Assembly (NCBI GenBank): GCA_016218585.1
Contig: JACRDK010000004.1
Location: 21,347 to 85,346, forward strand
Direction: 5' to 3'
DNA: 64,000 nucleotides
From: Candidatus Doudnabacteria bacterium
GTDB lineage: Bacteria > Patescibacteriota > Doudnabacteria > UBA920
Part shown: positions 3,969-32,861 of the stretch, one piece after another
Layout: every line of letters starts with the position of its first letter
How positions within the stretch are numbered: position 1 is the first letter of the stretch
Notes under the pieces: generated by a model
What the model saw: the letters and a program-made list of their open reading frames with translations, nothing else
Databases searched by the model: none
Told to the model about the DNA's origin: nothing
Made by a program: the position numbers and the translations under genes

Positions 3969-4292
3969 TTAAACTGCTTTACCGCTGGTTCTGGCCATTC
4001 TCTGCTTGCTGCCATTTTCCAAAAAAGTAAATCCAACGCGGGATGGGTTGCCGGAATTCGGGTCGAGCAGCATAACTTTAGAAACATGGAGGGCTGCAAA
4101 AAATGTAACTTTCTTTCCTGGCTCGCCGGCTTTTTTAGACTTTTCAAACCTGGTATGGACATTAACGTTTTCCACCATCACCTTGGAGATTTTGGGTAAA
4201 ACTTTAATAACCTTGCCGGTCTTTCCTTTGTCTTTTCCGGAAATGACTTTTACGGTATCGCCTGTCTTAATTTTTAGTCTGTTATTATTCAT
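3969..4292 (-). CDS. rplX: 50S ribosomal protein L24
   Basis: KIKTGDTVKVISGKDKGKTGKV is the KOW motif. Confidence 0.9.
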   Translation of the reverse strand: MNNNRLKIKTGDTVKVISGKDKGKTGKVIKVLPKISKVMVENVNVHTRFEKSKKAGEPGKKVTFFAALHVSKVMLLDPNSGNPSRVGFTFLENGSKQRMARTSGKAV

Positions 4293-4418
4293 ATCTTTAC
4301 TAAATACTAATTGATACTAATATACTAATCATTAAATGTTGGGTAATCTTTGAGAGTAAGAATTCGTATATTCGCCTGCCTGCCGGTAGGCAGGTACAAA
4401 TTCGTACTTCGTAAAGTT
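4293..4418. repeat. Intergenic repeat family R2 (ACTAAT and GAATTCGTA words). Copies also lie at 2963-3061, 3257-3318 (partial), 5378-5483, 5901-6020 and 7373-7482
   Basis: CTTTACTAAATACTAATTGATACTAATATACTAAT...AGTAAGAATTCGTATATTCG[P20]TACAAATTCGTACTTCGTAAAGT. Confidence 0.85.
4375..4394. repeat. 20-bp perfect palindrome P20, CCTGCC(T)ACCGGCAGGCAGG; other copies at 7439-7458, 13399-13418 and 24476-24495
   Basis: Exact copies. Two are inserted into R2 copies (R2 at 5378-5483 lacks it), one is inside the partial tRNA-Leu copy, and one is upstream of tuf. Confidence 0.85.
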
Positions 4419-4811
4419 TTAAATTACTTCTGGTGCCAAGCTGACAATTTTCTTAAATCCATCTTCAAAGGAGCCTTTAGCTTTTTCGCGAATTTCTCTC
4501 GGGATAGGACCGAATATGCGGCTTCCTTTTGGCTCACCTTTTTCTTTATCTACAATCACTCCGGCATTTTCATCAAAGCGTATATAAGATCCGTCTTTTC
4601 TGCGAATTTCTTTGCGCAAGCGAACAATTACCGCATAAACTTTATCACCCTTCTTTAAGGAAGAGTTCGGCGCAACCTGCTTGACGGAGCCGGCAACAAT
4701 GTCGCCGATTCTGGCAAAACGATTGCTGTTTTTTCCGTTGACGGAGAAAACATTGACGATCTTTGCGCCAGTATTGTCTGCTATATTAATCCAGGATCTT
4801 ACTTGTAACAT
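4419..4811 (-). CDS. rplN: 50S ribosomal protein L14
   Basis: MLQVRSWINIADNTGAK N-terminus. Confidence 0.9.
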   Translation of the reverse strand: MLQVRSWINIADNTGAKIVNVFSVNGKNSNRFARIGDIVAGSVKQVAPNSSLKKGDKVYAVIVRLRKEIRRKDGSYIRFDENAGVIVDKEKGEPKGSRIFGPIPREIREKAKGSFEDGFKKIVSLAPEVI

Positions 4812-11376: not shown

Positions 11377-11405
11377 TTGACAAAATACTTAAAAAATGCT
11401 ATAAT
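11377..11405 (+). promoter_or_regulatory. Near-perfect sigma70 promoter, TTGACA-17 bp-TATAAT, driving the small ORF at 11443
   Basis: TTGACA at 11377-11382, a 17-nt spacer and TATAAT at 11400-11405. An AAGGAGGG ribosome-binding site lies 8 nt before the ATG. Confidence 0.6.
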
Positions 11406-11442
11406 CTTTGGGTTAAATTTCCTTTAAGGAGGGAGAATAGAA

Positions 11443-11688
11443 ATGACTGTAAGGATAGAGCGACTGGCTGTGAGAATGTCAATTTTCCTCTATGGCATTC
11501 TGAACGCGATTTTCGTGGGCATCGCCTATAAGCCGGCCATGTCCTACACAAAAAGCTCATCGGGAGAGTTGGCAAACCTGCTGACGATGCTTCTGATTGA
11601 AGCCCTTGTGTTGTTCAACCTCGCGATAGCGGCAACAGCCCTACTCATGAGGCTTGAGAAAAAACCTGACGCCACGACTCAAACGTAA
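11443..11688 (+). CDS. Small hydrophobic protein (81 aa, two predicted TM helices), antisense to the ribosomal-protein and tuf genes
   Basis: Consensus promoter, strong ribosome-binding site and two tandem terminators; local GC is higher than the surroundings. Confidence 0.55.
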   Translation: MTVRIERLAVRMSIFLYGILNAIFVGIAYKPAMSYTKSSSGELANLLTMLLIEALVLFNLAIAATALLMRLEKKPDATTQT

Positions 11689-11719
11689 ACAACCCGGGCT
11701 TGCCCGAGATGGCAAGCAG

Positions 11720-11806
11720 ACAGCGCAGACCTTTACCGGCCTGCGCTGTTTTCAATTTCTTAATACAAACTAAAACTCCCCTCGCGAAAGCGGGGGGAGT
11801 TTTTTC
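11720..11806 (+). terminator. Tandem rho-independent terminators
   Basis: CAGCGCAG...CTGCGCTG+TTTT, then CTCCCCTCGCGAAAGCGGGGGGAG+TTTTTT. Confidence 0.6.
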
Positions 11807-13816: not shown

Positions 13817-13951
13817 GATTTTTCTTTCTTAATTTCCCGCCAGGGGCGGGCATTCCCTAATTTCATTCTCATTATACGCCTCTTAGAAAGGCTTTACAAC
13901 TTTCTAAATAATTTGGTATTCTTGGGACTAGAATTTTGCAGGAGGATTGCG

Positions 13952-14320
13952 ATGTTGATTGTTTGTAAGGTGTTTGCTGTTTTGGTTTTTTATCACTCAG
14001 CGTCCTTTATGCATGCTGCCATAAATATGTTAATTTACAGAAACTTACCTAGCAGCGAAAGGAAAACTTCTGGCCCAATAACAAAAGCCTTCCACCTCGG
14101 AATTGCCATTTTGGCAACGACTCTTCTCCCCCCCTCACAAATCACAATACAAGAACTAGCCTTAGCAATTTTGGTTTATGCTGGCACGGCCATCTGGTGT
14201 TTTAACAAGGCAGTGAAGCACGTAAAGGATCAAAAAACGAGAGAGGCAAATGTATTTGGCGGTACTGGGATAGCGTTTATGTCGTTAGTTTTTTTCTTTT
14301 TTGGGTTGTGCTTGGTGTAG
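13952..14320 (+). CDS. Hypothetical membrane protein (about 122 aa, roughly 4 TM helices); start moved to the ATG preceded by AGGAGG
   Basis: gcAGGAGGattgcgATG; a hairpin plus T-run terminator lies at 14353-14400. Confidence 0.5.
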   Translation: MLIVCKVFAVLVFYHSASFMHAAINMLIYRNLPSSERKTSGPITKAFHLGIAILATTLLPPSQITIQELALAILVYAGTAIWCFNKAVKHVKDQKTREANVFGGTGIAFMSLVFFFFGLCLV

Positions 14321-14550
14321 AACCTCCTTACCGCAAAACAAGAACAGCTTTGTGCCGGCGGGTCCGTAAGGACTCCGCCGGCATCATCATTTTTATATTT
14401 TATAAATTGTGCAGATTTGGACGATCGTCAGAATATGTACAAAGATAAAAATGTAAAATACTCTGAAAGCTCTAAATTTAAAACAGGCCAATGCAATCGC
14501 ATTGGCCTGTTTTTATCTGTACTATCTGTTCCCATCCGTAATCCGTGATT

Positions 14551-17431: not shown

Positions 17432-17519
17432 ATGTTTATTCCACTAATTCACGAATTCTCACTAATTTCACGAATACCACTTAGTGTGATTCGTGATGAT
17501 TAGTGAATTCGTGGATAAA
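17432..17519. repeat. Repeat family R6 (CACGAAT words) immediately downstream and upstream of rpsL; second copy at 17934-18019, about 90% identical over about 75 bp
   Basis: CACTAATTTCACGAATA.CACTTAGT.T.ATTCG.GATGATTAGTGAATTCGTGGATAAATTATT occurs on both sides of rpsL. Confidence 0.85.
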
Positions 17520-17933
17520 TTATTTTCTCTTCGTTCCGTATTTAGAACGGCTTCTCTTTCTCCCGTCGACTCCGAGAGTATCTAGCTTTCCGCGAACAAT
17601 GTGATAACGGACACCGGGAAGATCTTTTACACGTCCGCCGCGGATCATTACTACGCTGTGTTCCTGTAAGTTGTGGCCAATACCCGGGATGTAAGCAATA
17701 ACTTCCATTCCGTTGGTAAGTTTGACCTTAGCCACTTTACGCAAAGCCGAGTTCGGCTTTTTAGGCGTTGTGGTATAAACCTTTAAACAGACACCGCGCA
17801 TAAACGGGGCGCCGGTTTTTATGAACAATGTCTTGTTCTTTATCAAGTTCTGCCTGCGCATTAACGCCGGAGACTTGCTTTTGGTTTTAAGAGGGCTTCT
17901 GCCTCTGCGAACCAATTGATTGATTGTTGGCAT
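17520..17933 (-). CDS. rpsL: 30S ribosomal protein S12
   Basis: [12 protein letters not shown]...[10 protein letters not shown]. Confidence 0.95.
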
Positions 17934-18310
17934 TTTTTCTCCACCAATTCTCGAATTAACACTAATTTCACGAATACTACTTAGTATAATTCGCGATGAT
18001 TAGTGAATTCGTGGATAAATTATTTTCTTGAATACTTTAAATAGCCATAAAAAAACTGACAAAAGATGTCAGATCTTTCGCGCTCGCCTGCTTGGTACTC
18101 ATCAGAAACCTTTTGATGTTTCTTCCCTCCCCTCCTAAGGGGAGGGTGAAGGGAGAGGTTGTCTTCCCAAAACTTGCGACTAATAAATAGTGATTCAATC
18201 GCCAATACGCTGATATGCACAGATTGCGCGGATTTCTGCATCCGTGTTATCTGTTGCTATTTGCGTATTTGCGACTGGGCTTCTTATTCAATTAAACACA
18301 TTATACAGAA

Positions 18311-18339
18311 TTGACTTTAATCTGTCAATTTGCTACGAT
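18311..18339 (+). promoter_or_regulatory. Candidate sigma70 promoter (TTGACT-17-TACGAT) upstream of the Cys-rich ORF
   Basis: Spacing and sequence only. Confidence 0.35.
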
Positions 18340-18374
18340 AAAATGTTTTCAGGCTATTTTTAAGGAGGACGATC

Positions 18375-18701
18375 GTGTCTGTTTTTCATTATCAGGGCAT
18401 GAGAGTTGAAGGCGGTACAGAACCTACAATAACCGAAGCCCCTCTCAAACAATGCCCAGGCGGCGAACACTCGTGGACTATGACCAGCTTTGAATGGGTA
18501 CTGGCTAAGTCGGGTATCTTCCACAGCAACTACTTCTGGACAAAGACGTGCCCTTTATGTAGCCACCTGTTCAAACGGTACAGGCGCAAAGAGCTGTACT
18601 ACTGCCTGGTGTGCCACTCCAAAGGCCACATCACGCCGTCCGTTGTGCACGGGCGCTGTGATGACTGCAACACATTCCAAACAAATTTGGCTGAGAGATA
18701 G
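18375..18701 (+). CDS. Cys-rich small protein (108 aa) with two predicted zinc ribbons; GTG start
   Basis: A perfect AGGAGG sits 7 nt upstream of the GTG. Motifs CPGGEH, CPLC, CLVCH and CDDC. About 52% GC against a background of about 38%. Confidence 0.55.
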   Translation: MSVFHYQGMRVEGGTEPTITEAPLKQCPGGEHSWTMTSFEWVLAKSGIFHSNYFWTKTCPLCSHLFKRYRRKELYYCLVCHSKGHITPSVVHGRCDDCNTFQTNLAER

Positions 18702-18711
18702 GAGGAATAGC

Positions 18712-18918
18712 ATGCCGACGATGTCAGAGGTAACTGGTGTAATGGAGATCGCCATATTTTTAGGAGGGCACCTTGGCTCGATGGCCCTCAAGACTGTCAC
18801 AGCCCGAACACCACTTTCTGAAAGGAAAACAACACGCAATCTCAGCTTTGTGATTGCCGTGACAGCGATCTGTTTTTTCGCCCCCATCGCCGCCGCGATT
18901 TACTTTTTGAGAGGCTAG
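18712..18918 (+). CDS. Small membrane protein (68 aa, 2 TM), translationally coupled to the Cys-rich ORF
   Basis: AGGAGGaatagcATG starts 10 nt after the upstream stop; a terminator follows at 18931-18972. Confidence 0.5.
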   Translation: MPTMSEVTGVMEIAIFLGGHLGSMALKTVTARTPLSERKTTRNLSFVIAVTAICFFAPIAAAIYFLRG

Positions 18919-18930
18919 TCCTCTCCTCAC

Positions 18931-18972
18931 CGCCGGCCGCTTCTAACCATCGAAGCGGCCGGTTTTGCTTTT
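18931..18972 (+). terminator. Rho-independent terminator
   Basis: CCGGCCGCTTC...GAAGCGGCCGG followed by TTTT. Confidence 0.6.
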
Positions 18973-19010
18973 CTTAGACATTGACAAATGCTCACAAATT
19001 CAGTAAAGTA

Positions 19011-19241
19011 ATGCCTATGCCAGTTTTAGTACCGCTTGTTGATGAAGTCATCGGCTGTAAGGTTATTGCCATAAACGGCAAAGCCGTATCAGTAAATGGC
19101 GAAATTGCCGTAGAAGGAGGAATGGTCAAAAGATGTTGGGTGGAGAGAGGACACAAGTTCTATAAGTTGCTTGACCCGACAACCCGCTCGGAGTTTCCAA
19201 GCTACTTCCGGGCTTCGGATTTCACTACTGTCGACGGATAA
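19011..19241 (+). CDS. Hypothetical small protein (about 74-76 aa), possibly leaderless
   Basis: TTGACA (18981)-17-TAAAGT lies immediately before the ATG codons at 19011 and 19017; a terminator follows at 19265-19305. Confidence 0.4.
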   Translation: MPMPVLVPLVDEVIGCKVIAINGKAVSVNGEIAVEGGMVKRCWVERGHKFYKLLDPTTRSEFPSYFRASDFTTVDG

Positions 19242-19437
19242 CACCGTTACCCACCCAAACGCAAAAGGGCGCCCCGTCCAATTCGGACGTGTGGCGCTTT
19301 TTTCTTTACCTCTAAATATTTTACTTGTCTAAGACTTTCCAATTTATAAAAAAATAGACAAGCTTTGTACAATGACTATATAGCTACAAATTCCACTCAT
19401 TCACGGCCGTGAATGAGTGGAATTTGTTAAATTAGGC

Positions 19438-22419: not shown

Positions 22420-22900
22420 GTGAAAGCTCGCCGTCCGGGAAGGAACGGCGAGCTTATTGCGTGCAGCTGTTGCTGCGGTTGATGATGAGTCAGCCTTGGG
22501 CTTGCGCCGCGGGCTGGGATTTTCCCTCCGTTGAAAGCGGAGACTGACCATCTCGAGTCAAGAGCGCCTTACACTTGGTGCATTCAAACCCGTGTGGGGT
22601 TTCTGTGTGAACCCGTTCTTGATCGCATTGACAGCAAAACAACATTGCGTCCATTTGCCGCATCTAACGCTCCTAGGCGACTGAAGCCGCTTGTTCGAAC
22701 ATCCTTTGCAAGGTTGATTCCCTCGCTCTGCCGGAACGCTTGGATACCACCAAGCATCTCCAGCAAATCTTAAACGTACCGTGACAATCACGAACGCTGA
22801 CGAAAGTCCGAGCCGCCCTGGCGCAGTGTGGGCAATGCATCGCAGGCAACTCTTTAGAAATAACCTCATCAACCTCCATCTGGAGGCCAAAAATAACAAC
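22420..22900. other. GC-rich (about 55%) region without a credible ORF; candidate structured RNA of unknown class
   Basis: Abrupt composition shift. Overlapping ORFs in several frames translate to R/C/W/P-rich proteins. Many stems. Contains GACGAAAGTCCGAGCC, which resembles RNase P RNA CR-I. Confidence 0.35.
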
Positions 22901-23206
22901 CTGCACTTTTCAATCCCCCTTAACTCTTTAATTCTAACCAACAATACATTTCCGATATAATCAGAAAATAATTGCTATCTAGAATCCCATTTTAAAACCC
23001 TAAAGTTTTTAGCTTTAGGGTTAAGGTGTAAGAAATCTTTTGGTAAAAATCTGTAAACGCCTATTCCCTAAATAACCCTGCCAAAACAATGGCCTTAGTA
23101 AAGACCGGGAGGGTATTAATGGAATTGTGGCGAAAATTCATCATATTGCAATTATATTACAACTTTATGCAAAATCCGTCAAATAGATTTTTCCACAATA
23201 AAAAAA

Positions 23207-29969: not shown

Positions 29970-32861
29970 TTATATAACAAGGTTTATTAATCTGTTTGGC
30001 ACAAAAATTACCCGCTTAACGCTTTCTCCGACCAATGCCTGTTTAACTGCGTCCATTGCCATAACCTGAGCTTGCACTGCTTCCTGAGTCGCGCCGGCCG
30101 CAACGGTAAGTTTGGCTTTTACCCTGCCATTAATTTGCACAATTATTTCTACTGACGATTCAATAACCAATGCGGGATCAAAATTTGGCCAACTTAAATA
30201 CTGTAATGAGCCGACTTTCTTTTTTTCAACTTTGCTAACTTTCTCGTTTAATTCTTCCGCTATGTGCGGAGCAAATGGATACAACAAAATCAAGAATGTT
30301 TTAATGGATTCTAAGGTAATAAATTCATCCTTAATCTCATTATGAAATTCCATAAAAGCGGAAATGGAAGTGTTAAAACGGAAATTTTCCAAATCCTCGG
30401 TAATTTTCTTTATTAATTTATTCAACGCCCTCTGCACCTTATCAGTATCTTTTGCCCTTGATTCCTGATTCCTGATTCCTGATTCTTGTTGGTGGGGCGC
30501 TTCCGCAATTTCATTTACCCAGGTCCAAACTCTGTCTAAAAATCTTCTCACCCCAACAACGCCCTGGTCATTCCACGACACCATGGACTCGTGAGGCCCT
30601 AAAAACATTTCGTACATTCTTAGGGTATCGGCTCCATATTTTTTTACAACCTCATCAGGATTTACCACATTGCCCCGGCTCTTGGACATTTTCTCGCCAT
30701 CCGGGCCCAAAACAATTCCGTGCGGATGGCGTTTTTTATACGGTTCAGACACAGTAACCAAACCCTGGTCATACAAAAATAAATTCCAAAACCTGCTGTA
30801 AAGCAAATGCAAGGTTGTGTGCTCCATGCCGCCCAAATATACGTCTACCGGTTGCCAGTACTTTAACTTTTTCATATCGGCAAATTTGGTTTTATTTTTT
30901 GGGTCAGCATAGCGCAGCCAATACCAAGAACTGCCGGCCCATTGCGGCATAGTGTTAGTTTCCCGCCAAGCGGTCTTTTTACATTTTGGGCACTTGGTTT
31001 TTACCCAGCTTTTAATATCGGCCAATGGAGATTCTCCGTTGCCCGTTGGTTCATATTTTTTTACATTCGGCAGCTTTACCGGCAAATCCTTTTCCGGAAC
31101 CGGCACAATACCGCAATCTTCACAATGAATTAACGGAATTGGCTCGCCCCAATATCTTTGCCTGCTAAAAACCCAATCGCGCAGTTTATATTGAACGGTT
31201 AACTTGCCAAACTCCCCGCCCATTTTTGTTATTGCTTCTTCTGTTTTAAGTCCGTCAAATTTTTCAGAATTAATTACCACTCCGCTTTCCACCAGGGCTT
31301 TTGGCCCCGTCTTATACAAATCCCAAAAATGTTTAAACACCGCGCCCTTAATAAAAGCGGCCACGGATTTTTCACTTACCCAAACCGGTTTATGTTTGGC
31401 CAGTTCTTCTCCCACAACTTCTGTTTTATCTTCGTTTACCAAATCAAACACAAAACCTTTAAAATAAGCGTGGCGATTTTCTTTTTTTAACAAATGGTAA
31501 AACTTTTCATGCGCTTGCCCAAGTTCCGCAACAAGTTTTATATTTTTATAGCCGGTTTCTTCCGCCACTTCTCTCTGGCAGGCAACAATGTAATCTTCGC
31601 CTTTTTCCACCCCGCCGGTTACAAAAGTTTTCCAGGCTTCAGAAACCTGCCACTGCAAGCACAAAAATTCATTGGTTTTTGGATTGCGAACCAAACAAAC
31701 CACCGCATTTCTAGGAACGAACGGTAATTCAGGCTTGGGAGGTTCGTCTTTAGAAACAAACTCCGGAGCCACAACCTGGACTATTGGCAATTTAAATTTT
31801 GTTGCAAATTCAAAATCGCGAACATCGTGCGCCGGCACGGCCATAATTGCTCCCGTTCCATAATGGCCAAGAACATAGTCTGCCACCCACACCGGAATTT
31901 CCTGTTTGGTTGCTGGGTTAATTGCCTTAATTCCTTTTAACTCAACTCCGGTTTTTTCTTTTCCTTCGGCCGTGCGGTCCATTTCCGCCTTCTCTTTTGC
32001 CTTAGCAATATACTTTGCGACCTCGTCGTAATTCTTGATTCTTGATTCTTGATTCTTAATTAAAGGGTGCTCCGGCGCCACCACCATATAACTCGCGCCA
32101 AAAATAGTATCCGGTCGGGTGGTGAAAACCTCAATTGGAAATTGGAAATTGGAAATTGGAAATTTAATAATCGCTCCCGTGCTCTTTCCAATCCAATTCT
32201 CCTGTTGCAGCTTTACCGCTTCAGGCCATTCGGGCAAATTTTTTAATCCTTCCAATAATTTTTCCGCGTAAGCGGTTATGCGCAAATACCACTGCCGCAG
32301 CTCTTTCTTTTCCACGATAGTGCCGCAGCGTTCGCATTTGCCGTCTATTACTTCCTCGTTAGCCAATCCGGTTTTGTCTTTTGGACACCAATTAATCAAG
32401 CCGGTAGCTTCATAAGCCAACCCTTTTTTGTAAAATTGCAAAAACAGCCACTGCGTCCATTTATAATATTCCGGGTCGGTAGTGTTTATTTCCCTGCTCC
32501 AATCAAAACTCAAACCCCAACTTTGAATTTGTTTCTTGGCGTTGGCAACATTTTTTTTGGTAGTAATGGAAGGATGCACGCCCATTTTTATGGCATAGTT
32601 TTCCGCAGGCAGACCAAAAGCATCCCAACCAATTGGAAACATAGTCTCAAAACCTTTTAACCTGTTAAATCTGCTGTAAACATCGCCCGCCACATAAGGG
32701 CGCAAATGCCCCATATGCAAACCTGCGCCGGACGGATAAGGAAATTCAACCAACACAAACTTTTTTGGTTTTTTGGCCGACTCTTTGGCGATAAAAGTTT
32801 TATTTTTTGCCCAAAATGCTTGCCACTTGCCTTCTATTTTTTTATGGTCGTACTTTTGCAT
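29970..32861 (-). CDS. leuS: Leucyl-tRNA synthetase
   Basis: HMGH, KMSKS and the CP1 domain; 963 aa. Confidence 0.95.
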   Translation of the reverse strand: MQKYDHKKIEGKWQAFWAKNKTFIAKESAKKPKKFVLVEFPYPSGAGLHMGHLRPYVAGDVYSRFNRLKGFETMFPIGWDAFGLPAENYAIKMGVHPSITTKKNVANAKKQIQSWGLSFDWSREINTTDPEYYKWTQWLFLQFYKKGLAYEATGLINWCPKDKTGLANEEVIDGKCERCGTIVEKKELRQWYLRITAYAEKLLEGLKNLPEWPEAVKLQQENWIGKSTGAIIKFPISNFQFPIEVFTTRPDTIFGASYMVVAPEHPLIKNQESRIKNYDEVAKYIAKAKEKAEMDRTAEGKEKTGVELKGIKAINPATKQEIPVWVADYVLGHYGTGAIMAVPAHDVRDFEFATKFKLPIVQVVAPEFVSKDEPPKPELPFVPRNAVVCLVRNPKTNEFLCLQWQVSEAWKTFVTGGVEKGEDYIVACQREVAEETGYKNIKLVAELGQAHEKFYHLLKKENRHAYFKGFVFDLVNEDKTEVVGEELAKHKPVWVSEKSVAAFIKGAVFKHFWDLYKTGPKALVESGVVINSEKFDGLKTEEAITKMGGEFGKLTVQYKLRDWVFSRQRYWGEPIPLIHCEDCGIVPVPEKDLPVKLPNVKKYEPTGNGESPLADIKSWVKTKCPKCKKTAWRETNTMPQWAGSSWYWLRYADPKNKTKFADMKKLKYWQPVDVYLGGMEHTTLHLLYSRFWNLFLYDQGLVTVSEPYKKRHPHGIVLGPDGEKMSKSRGNVVNPDEVVKKYGADTLRMYEMFLGPHESMVSWNDQGVVGVRRFLDRVWTWVNEIAEAPHQQESGIRNQESRAKDTDKVQRALNKLIKKITEDLENFRFNTSISAFMEFHNEIKDEFITLESIKTFLILLYPFAPHIAEELNEKVSKVEKKKVGSLQYLSWPNFDPALVIESSVEIIVQINGRVKAKLTVAAGATQEAVQAQVMAMDAVKQALVGESVKRVIFVPNRLINLVI

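Follow-up and report, generated by a model that had tools for sequence, protein, structure and literature searches.

Is the short islet rich in guanine plus cytosine (GC) next to rpsL in a genome of Candidatus Doudnabacteria a foreign module, a system of cooperating genes, or a regular part of its locus? The question is raised by positions 18300-19305 of a stretch of 64,000 nucleotides (nt) from contig JACRDK010000004.1 (assembly GCA_016218585.1), which was analysed at its full length and is referred to below as the window. A first-pass annotation, made from the letters alone, had described three small genes here (A, B and C in the following) and had proposed a membrane-anchored zinc-finger regulator or anti-sigma pair with a partner, or a horizontally acquired module, and a candidate novel system in either case. 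With a probability that we put at roughly 0.55, positions 18336-19322 are instead this genome's content of a position-conserved, content-variable small-gene slot in Candidatus Doudnabacteria, which is occupied by strongly signalled exchangeable cassettes. The slot lies between the promoter region on the rpsL side and the end of a convergent gene of the M50 family (site-2 protease).

Conserved flanks and variable content of the slot

Loci were fetched around S12 proteins 95-96% identical to the S12 protein of the window, and loci and contigs are designated here by L numbers. Homology between the window and its relatives extends from rpsL to approximately position 18335 and resumes at approximately 19323 in the direction of the M50-family gene. 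The left border is a perfect sigma-70-type promoter directed towards rpsL on the minus strand (TTGACA 18328..18323, 17 nt, TATAAT 18305..18300; 12 of 12 matches), which is kept in L001, L002 and L083-L104. The right border (19323..19437, not assigned to a strand) contains the inverted repeat CTTGTCTA (19324-19331) and TAGACAAG (19355-19362) together with a palindrome of 42 nt, and is matched in L083, L084, L085 and L088. Motif AGATCTGACATCTTTTGTCAG and the M50-family gene can be used as anchors of the slot.

Between these flanks the relatives carry differing small genes, all of which run opposite to rpsL: a single gene of 90 amino acids (aa) in L083 and L085, an 82-aa Cys-rich gene plus an 83-aa gene in L084 and L088, a 90-aa gene plus an 86-aa gene in L086, a single 95-aa gene in L098, and other genes led by a Shine-Dalgarno (SD) sequence in L090/L091, L093, L094, L095 and L100-L103. 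The first opposite-strand gene of the relatives is preceded by AAGGAGG, GGGAGG or AGGAGG at 4-8 nt from its start codon, and a comparison of this first gene between L090 and L091 gave 6 synonymous and 3 non-synonymous codon differences. The encoded proteins form clusters of only one or two sequences that are annotated as "hypothetical protein" at best, and none of them matched a Pfam or PADLOC model. Loci L098 and L099 are identical through a leaderless-type promoter up to the ATG and continue with unrelated open reading frames (ORFs), which points to cassette replacement at module boundaries. In more distant Patescibacteria the M50-family gene is located directly upstream of rpsL.

The cassettes of the relatives are separated from each other by a repeat of about 60 nt (GCACTGCACGCCCAATCGGCGACAGA...GGAGGGCTCTTTTTTT), which looks like a two-level terminator and is directly followed by the leaderless-type promoter (regions L084 3768-4740, L086 861-1850 and L083 4117-4720). 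Same-strand insertions are present in the gap between the M50-family gene and rpsL (L002 2890-6000, L089/L092 approximately 4010-4590, L103 750-1100) and comprise either a 221-aa ORF read as CBS-type and a 638-aa ORF with an HEHGH metalloprotease-like motif, or a DUF559 endonuclease-like gene. At the right border, the palindrome (19386-19427) is perfect, folds with -29.8 kcal/mol (z = -9.4), follows immediately after the convergent M50-family gene and is kept in relatives; one of its arms resembles a motif within the leader repeat of rpsG (17438-17453).

The integrity of the assembly was supported by Logan contig L081 (1366 nt), an independent assembly of SRR12113407 that is identical to window positions 17999-19364. 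As the islet and its two conserved flanks are thus joined in a second assembly as well, an assembly chimera was ruled out. The neighbouring Logan contig begins at 19394; the contig ends fall on a 97-nt repeat near rpsL (described below) and on the 42-nt palindrome, which lies at the break between the two contigs.

Gene C as a resident of the slot

Gene C (19017..19241, plus strand) encodes 74 aa, or 76 aa if read from the ATG at 19011, and is the only gene that NCBI annotates in the gap (MBI5529949.1, between S12 (...948) and the M50-family protein (...950)). A hidden Markov model (HMM) built from the proteins of five relatives, with C excluded, ranked the C ORF first among 657 six-frame ORFs of the window (E = 0.0015; next ORF, 1.2). 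The protein also matched that of L098 with 39% identity over 41 aa (E = 9e-4; phmmer, 2512 ORFs), and the relatives are connected among themselves by a chain of similarities (L098-L084, 8e-21; L084-L083, 3e-6; L083-L086, 2e-36). The pairwise link between C and the 90-aa proteins, seen by eye, is not significant and holds only through L098 and L084, and the N-terminus of C is shorter than in the other family members.

The promoter ahead of C (TTGACA-17-TAAAGT, 18981..19009, plus strand) ends 1 nt before the ATG at 19011 and 7 nt before the ATG at 19017. By alignment it is homologous to the sequence TTGACAtctttttSCAAAwCCTGTAAATT, which precedes the 83- to 95-aa genes of the relatives with the ATG 10 nt further on; this layout is kept in L083, L084, L086, L098 and L099. 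C thus shares similarity, position, orientation, promoter and flanks with its relatives and is native to the locus, being a member of a small family that occupies the same slot in five relatives; we infer an old resident family of the slot. Profile iteration of this family gave no further members, a word-indexed protein search returned only C itself, and a tblastn-type scan of viral contigs returned nothing for C. In structure C is predicted to be a small all-beta protein; a Foldseek search with its model gave non-significant SH3-like or Tudor-like barrels (best E = 0.23), which is only a hint.

The layout at the start of C, with the -10 element no more than about 10 nt from the start codon and no SD sequence, is that of a leaderless gene. 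Given the 7 nt between promoter and ATG, the mRNA of C is probably leaderless or nearly so, as the first-pass annotation had supposed. Such a layout is not unusual here, since a promoter-like site 3-8 nt before the start codon was found for approximately 5 of 59 core genes.

Expression signals of the islet

The other unit of the islet comprises genes A and B. Its predicted promoter (TTGACT-17-TACGAT, 18311..18339, plus strand) has an extended TG (TGcTACGAT) and overlaps the opposite promoter directed towards rpsL, in the spacer of which its -35 hexamer is located, so that the two form the palindrome TTGACT-N6-TGTCAA. The corresponding arrangement TTGACA-N6-TGTCAA recurs in L084, L088, L093, L100 and L101. 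A perfect AGGAGG (18363..18368) is positioned 6 nt ahead of the GTG of A (18375), and a second one (18700..18705) 6 nt ahead of the ATG of B (18712). The stop codon of A (TAG, 18699-18701) lies inside the SD sequence of B, which suggests that the translation of the two genes is coupled. The unit ends with a predicted terminator (stem 18932-18963, continuing through a T-run to 18973; 12-bp stem with 9 GC pairs, -25.4 kcal/mol, z = -6.7), and a second one follows C (19263-19298 plus T6, to 19304), with a two-part GC-rich stem (-23.6 kcal/mol, z = -3.9). All of the signals that the first-pass annotation had listed were hereby recovered, namely the candidate promoter ahead of A, the perfect AGGAGG of the GTG-started 108-aa ORF, the AGGAGG-led 68-aa ORF, both terminators, and the promoter abutting the ATG codons of an ORF of about 74 aa.

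These translation signals are exceptional for the window. The plus strand holds four AGGAGG within 758 nt, compared with 18 in the 64 kilobases (kb) of both strands. The GGAGG core precedes only 1 of 59 core genes and a 4-nt fragment of an SD sequence 7 more, whereas a complete AGGAGG at proper spacing was found for small and mostly unannotated genes, namely A, B and two small plus-strand membrane-protein genes in the ribosomal cluster (11443-11688 and 13952-14320).

Composition and the question of recent acquisition

Composition, orientation and signals could also be taken to mean that the whole 1-kb islet was recently acquired from a GC-richer, SD-using donor, be it a phage, a plasmid or a host bacterium, which we consider unlikely. 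The compositional deviation itself is real. The GC content of 18300-19305 is 48.7%, compared with 40.7% for the whole window (1006-nt windows, standard deviation (sd) 3.1%); it is the top 1-kb value in the 64 kb and is reached by only 0.08% of windows. The earlier description of about 50% GC in a 38% GC genome was therefore correct as to the richness of the islet and slightly low as to its surroundings. By gene, the GC content is 51.1% for A, 50.7% for B and 47.2% for C (42 reference genes, 41.2 +/- 3.4%), and the GC content at third codon positions (GC3) is 0.615, 0.565 and 0.481, respectively (reference genes, 0.407 +/- 0.045), which places A and B 3.5-4.6 sd above the mean. The codon usage of the islet is unlike that of the ribosomal-protein set, A and B have perfect SD sequences in an SD-poor genome and were absent from all 24 related loci searched, and the three genes are oriented opposite to the surrounding genes.

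Against an acquisition of the whole islet stands first of all gene C, with homologues in the same slot and behind the same promoter in five relatives. Furthermore, GC3 lies between 0.42 and 0.62 in all slot genes of all relatives, the C family included (locus GC content, 0.40-0.48), the same SD use recurs in each of these genes, and the other small cassettes of the window share both the GC and GC3 bias and the SD use. As every slot gene is GC3-rich, composition alone is no proof of recent transfer and instead marks a class of small genes; in this lineage, gene transfer cannot be read reliably from GC-richness by itself. An explanation of the high GC3 by high expression was likewise considered and rejected, the codon-adaptation scores being unlike those of the ribosomal-protein set.

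The islet has neither an integrase or transposase ORF nor flanking direct repeats, and no donor-like match appeared in searches of 1.84 billion representative proteins and of metagenome, viral, phage and plasmid sequences. In particular, an exhaustive HMMER search of the representative proteins gave zero matches for A; a word-indexed protein search, tblastn-type scans of metagenome and viral contigs, and phage records gave no homologue of A; and the DNA of the whole islet matched no phage or plasmid record. B, which was searched within a 142-aa alternative frame by the word-indexed protein search, had no match either, and no paralogue of A or B was present in the window. The notion of a horizontally acquired module is thus not supported for the islet as a whole, C being native to the slot and the GC3 bias being common to the slot genes of all relatives. 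The A-B pair is the only remaining candidate in the islet for a recent gain or very fast divergence.

Nature of genes A and B

Gene A (18375..18701, plus strand; GTG start, 108 aa, pI 8.5) appears to encode a soluble small zinc-ribbon protein. It contains the motif CPLC-x14-CLVC-x14-CDDC (CPLC59, CLVC77, CDDC95), C27-x3-H31 and H92-x2-C95-x2-C98, and has no membrane segment. The first-pass annotation had counted four Cys pairs; there are three CxxC pairs, and C27-x3-H31 in place of a fourth. Of 1369 random stop-free 108-codon sequences with matching composition, not one contained three or more CxxC. A knuckle of the form [Y/F/T]C-x-x-C is found in 5 of 10 first-position slot proteins, A included, and A is weakly similar to the slot protein of L090 (pairwise E = 0.002-0.018). 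Gene B (18712..18918, plus strand; 68 aa, pI 9.8) appears to encode a small membrane protein with two hydrophobic segments and a basic loop between them. Its earlier description as a protein with two transmembrane segments is clear for the second one (residues approximately 44-66), which passes the Kyte-Doolittle threshold of 1.6, and falls short for the first (residues 7-26), which averages about 1.46 in a hand calculation. None of A, B and C matched a model of Pfam, NCBIfam, PHROGs or PADLOC, in line with the earlier remark that none of the products is recognisable, and sequence searches of the PDB (A, C and the C-family profile) gave nothing below E = 0.06.

What the products do can only be guessed with low confidence; our best guess is strain-specific accessory small proteins with a regulatory or a conflict/immunity role. 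A rival explanation is that A and B are a conflict module, either a toxin-antitoxin pair (a small membrane toxin with a zinc-ribbon partner) or a Cys-rich bacteriocin-like peptide with a membrane immunity protein, C being a separate accessory gene. The close coupling of two small genes, of which one encodes a hydrophobic protein, and Gly-Gly at residues 13-14 of A would fit, and so would the allele-like replacement in the slot among relatives with 80-95% identical core proteins, a behaviour typical of loci under diversifying selection. However, no toxin, antitoxin, bacteriocin or defence model of Pfam, NCBIfam, PHROG or PADLOC was matched, the N-terminus of A is off the consensus of double-glycine leaders, and the ten large ORFs of the window that were scanned are housekeeping genes with no C39-type or ABC export transporter among them. 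A B-like second gene was found in no other relative. Taken together, a conflict module is quite unlikely.

It is very unlikely that A and B are not genes at all, the islet being transcribed spacer or non-coding RNA with a role for its promoter and terminators (for instance as a counterweight to the divergent promoter on the rpsL side) and the open frames being by-products of a high GC content. Long overlapping ORFs on both strands, here and in the slots of relatives, would be in keeping with this explanation, as would the gene calls and the lack of A and B homologues for conservation testing that are considered below. Yet the first start codons of two consecutive ORFs each follow a perfect AGGAGG at a distance of exactly 6 nt, the stop codon of the first ORF overlaps the SD sequence of the second, and the three CxxC of A are evenly spaced. 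In a comparison of amino-acid log-odds the proposed frames of A, B and C were each the best of six, with a small margin for A; in the control the true frame was picked in 142 of 142 native segments. The slot genes of relatives display protein-level conservation and a synonymous excess, and the neutral spacer of this genome is AT-rich (22-40% GC), unlike the islet. A structured RNA as the content of the islet was rejected, since there was no Rfam match and the transcripts fold only slightly better than shuffled sequences (z = -2.1 and -1.65, in part due to the terminators). The three small genes of the islet are thus apparently genuine.

Finally, a membrane-anchored zinc-finger regulator or anti-sigma pair, suggested by a Cys/His-rich A with a small membrane protein next to it, is hardly credible, given that there is no sigma-factor gene in or beside the unit (the neighbours are rpsL and the M50-family gene), no match to a sigma-70 region in A, B or C, no match to a Pfam anti-sigma model, and in A neither H-x3-C-x2-C (it has H-x2-C-x2-C and three CxxC) nor a membrane segment. 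The analysis gave no evidence of a joint action of the three genes as one system.

Weight of the evidence and proposed mechanism

Several points count against the slot as described above. The case for A and B as coding sequences is built from signals and motifs, because no homologues exist for a conservation test; NCBI calls neither of them, and the Logan gene caller preferred an antisense 110-aa ORF (18555-18887). In a phmmer comparison A did not match the slot ORFs of relatives, and the link through the Cys knuckles is not significant at database size. The statistics of the C family are modest, and the similarity covers only the C-terminal half of C. The AlphaFold models were computed from single sequences and are poor, with a predicted local distance difference test (pLDDT) score of 37.5 for A and of 56 for the all-beta model of C. 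Codon adaptation is low (A, -0.02; B, -0.18; C, +0.02; ribosomal and elongation-factor genes, +0.105), and the idea that the cassettes are built for high expression is unsupported, as their codon usage differs from that of the highly expressed set. The anti-SD motif was detected in only 48% of Parcubacteria (PMC9297842) and is thus missing in about half of them, so that the use of the SD sequences of A and B is a prediction. Likewise, all transcription starts, transcript ends and translation starts given here are predictions from sequence signals.

Under the reading as an exchangeable slot, RNA polymerase would load in either direction on the interleaved promoters (TTGACT-N6-TGTCAA). Leftward transcription would produce a conserved structured RNA and then rpsL, and rightward transcription the A-B unit. 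A and B would each be translated from their perfect AGGAGG, 6 nt before the start codon, and coupled to each other, in a genome whose core genes are almost without SD sequences. The strong hairpin would end the A-B unit; C would be made from its own leaderless or near-leaderless mRNA, and the second hairpin would end the C unit. The cassettes might be exchanged where the conserved promoter and terminator modules recombine, and A-B might be a lineage-specific gain or a very fast-diverging occupant.

A speculative and rather doubtful extension of this mechanism is an integrase-free expression platform, in which the interleaved promoters link the expression of the str-operon leader RNA and of rpsL to that of exchangeable cassettes for small proteins. 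These cassettes would be bounded by promoter and terminator modules and would be the only genes observed here to depend on a strong SD sequence or on leaderless initiation. If this were true, the translation of small strain-specific proteins would start under other rules than that of the SD-poor core, for example only with the 3' tail of the 16S rRNA available, and the slot would report or tune the state of the ribosome.

A supposedly one-off foreign islet has hereby become a recurring, position-conserved slot with a clear layout, and its cassettes can be catalogued across Doudnabacteria by anchoring the slot at the conserved leader RNA and at the M50-family gene that flank it. Genomes of the candidate phyla radiation (CPR) are full of unannotated small genes, and two of the three genes of the islet are missing from the public annotation. 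The difference between an SD-poor core and perfectly SD-led small genes also bears on how translation starts in these organisms.

Conserved RNA upstream of rpsL

The perfect promoter at 18328..18300 leads towards rpsL into a conserved structured RNA (18293-18045, minus strand), which measures approximately 136-293 nt among homologues. Its end is an invariant hairpin CTGACATCTTTTGTCAG followed by a T-run. All 19 fetched loci that include this part of the locus have an exact copy of the 21-nt end motif, located 120-150 nt upstream of rpsL where positions were compared; the motif is absent from the other 85 fetched loci. Eleven distinct homologues have conserved blocks (including ACAGGUUUC and AGUACC) and two variable hairpin sites, and compensatory changes occur in two long-range helices. 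There was no Rfam match for this RNA, which may be a new leader or attenuator of the str operon or a small RNA.

A 97-nt direct repeat (89% identical; 17432-17528 and 17932-18028) is located immediately upstream of rpsG and rpsL and contains many inverted motifs of the form CACGAAT/ATTCGTG. The loci of relatives have similar repeats, and the 97-nt repeat may be a shared regulatory leader.

Similar cassettes and other features of the window

Three further small cassettes were observed in the window. The first (11379-11800, plus strand), a self-contained unit on the opposite strand between tuf and rpsJ, has a perfect TTGACA-17-TATAAT promoter, AAGGAGG and a gene for an 81-aa membrane protein with two segments (11443-11688; GC content 0.50, GC3 0.62), of which NCBI has a 70-aa version (MBI5529943.1); two terminator-like hairpins were read from its sequence. 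The second (13940-14395, plus strand), opposite fusA, has AGGAGG 6 nt ahead of the ATG at 13952, a gene for a 122-aa multi-segment membrane protein, and then a GC-rich hairpin with a T-run. The third (22425-22925, minus strand), beside tRNA-Pro, is a GC-rich (0.52-0.54) bicistronic CxxC pair followed by a terminator-like hairpin. Its members encode 77 aa (22673-22906; CPHC...CWRC, with AAGGGGG ahead) and 57 aa (22490-22663; CCQC...CTKC), and have a TAGGAG overlap of stop codon and SD sequence like that of A and B. The 77-aa protein is weakly similar to the first slot gene of L084 (E = 0.087).

In L083-L104, other gaps of the str/tuf cluster, between rpsG and fusA and after fusA, likewise contain small ORFs on the opposite strand, which encode 60-145 aa and have no Pfam match, so that the rpsL slot may be one of several.

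Elsewhere in the window, motif ATTAGTATTTAGTAAA is located directly upstream of several minus-strand ribosomal-protein genes (upstream of 2962, 4292 and 7372), and the leucyl-tRNA synthetase (29970-32861, minus strand) has a NUDIX domain (residues 383-500) right after its editing domain.

Comparison with known systems

Pairs of a zinc-binding anti-sigma (ZAS) protein and an extracytoplasmic function (ECF) sigma factor resemble the islet in having a Cys/His-rich small protein beside a membrane protein; the islet differs from them in lacking a sigma gene, the H-x3-C-x2-C motif and a family match.

The bacteriocin-immunity region of the pneumococcal blp locus is a replacement-type variable islet between conserved core genes. 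The slot is like islets of this type in its conserved flanks and differing small genes, and its junctions are at conserved regulatory modules. Unlike them, it measures only about 0.4-1 kb, holds one to three genes, and has no transporter, regulator or mobility gene.

The interleaved promoters can be compared with the bidirectional promoters of bacteria. In the predicted promoter pair of the slot the symmetry is between the -35 hexamers, the -10 elements being about 30 bp and the predicted starts about 53 bp apart. Promoters of the described bidirectional class reportedly have overlapping -10 elements. Bidirectional promoters are pseudo-symmetrical, with divergent transcription and with binding in one orientation excluding the other (bioRxiv 10.1101/2020.01.31.928960; PMC12825309). 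Gene C is similar to genes with leaderless mRNAs in that its -10 element ends 7 nt before the ATG and no SD sequence is present, the start being a predicted one.

For A, the haloarchaeal C(P)XCG zinc-finger micro-proteins are stand-alone proteins in which only paired CxxC/CPxC knuckles are recognisable; their genes often lie in intergenic gaps and are overlooked in annotation, and some of these proteins regulate neighbouring genes (PMC2253796, PMC10716476, PMC11241148). A differs from them in being bacterial, in its length of 108 aa (not <70), and in having three knuckles plus Cys/His with none of the knuckles before Gly (CPLCS, CLVCH, CDDCN), its zinc binding being a prediction. Knuckles like the haloarchaeal ones are found in A (CPLC) and in the slot proteins of relatives (FCPFCG, TCPFC, YCLFCG, YCHICG), and by this resemblance, rather than by membership, the haloarchaeal micro-proteins (Brz of Halobacterium, HVO_0758 of Haloferax) are the closest described analogues of A.

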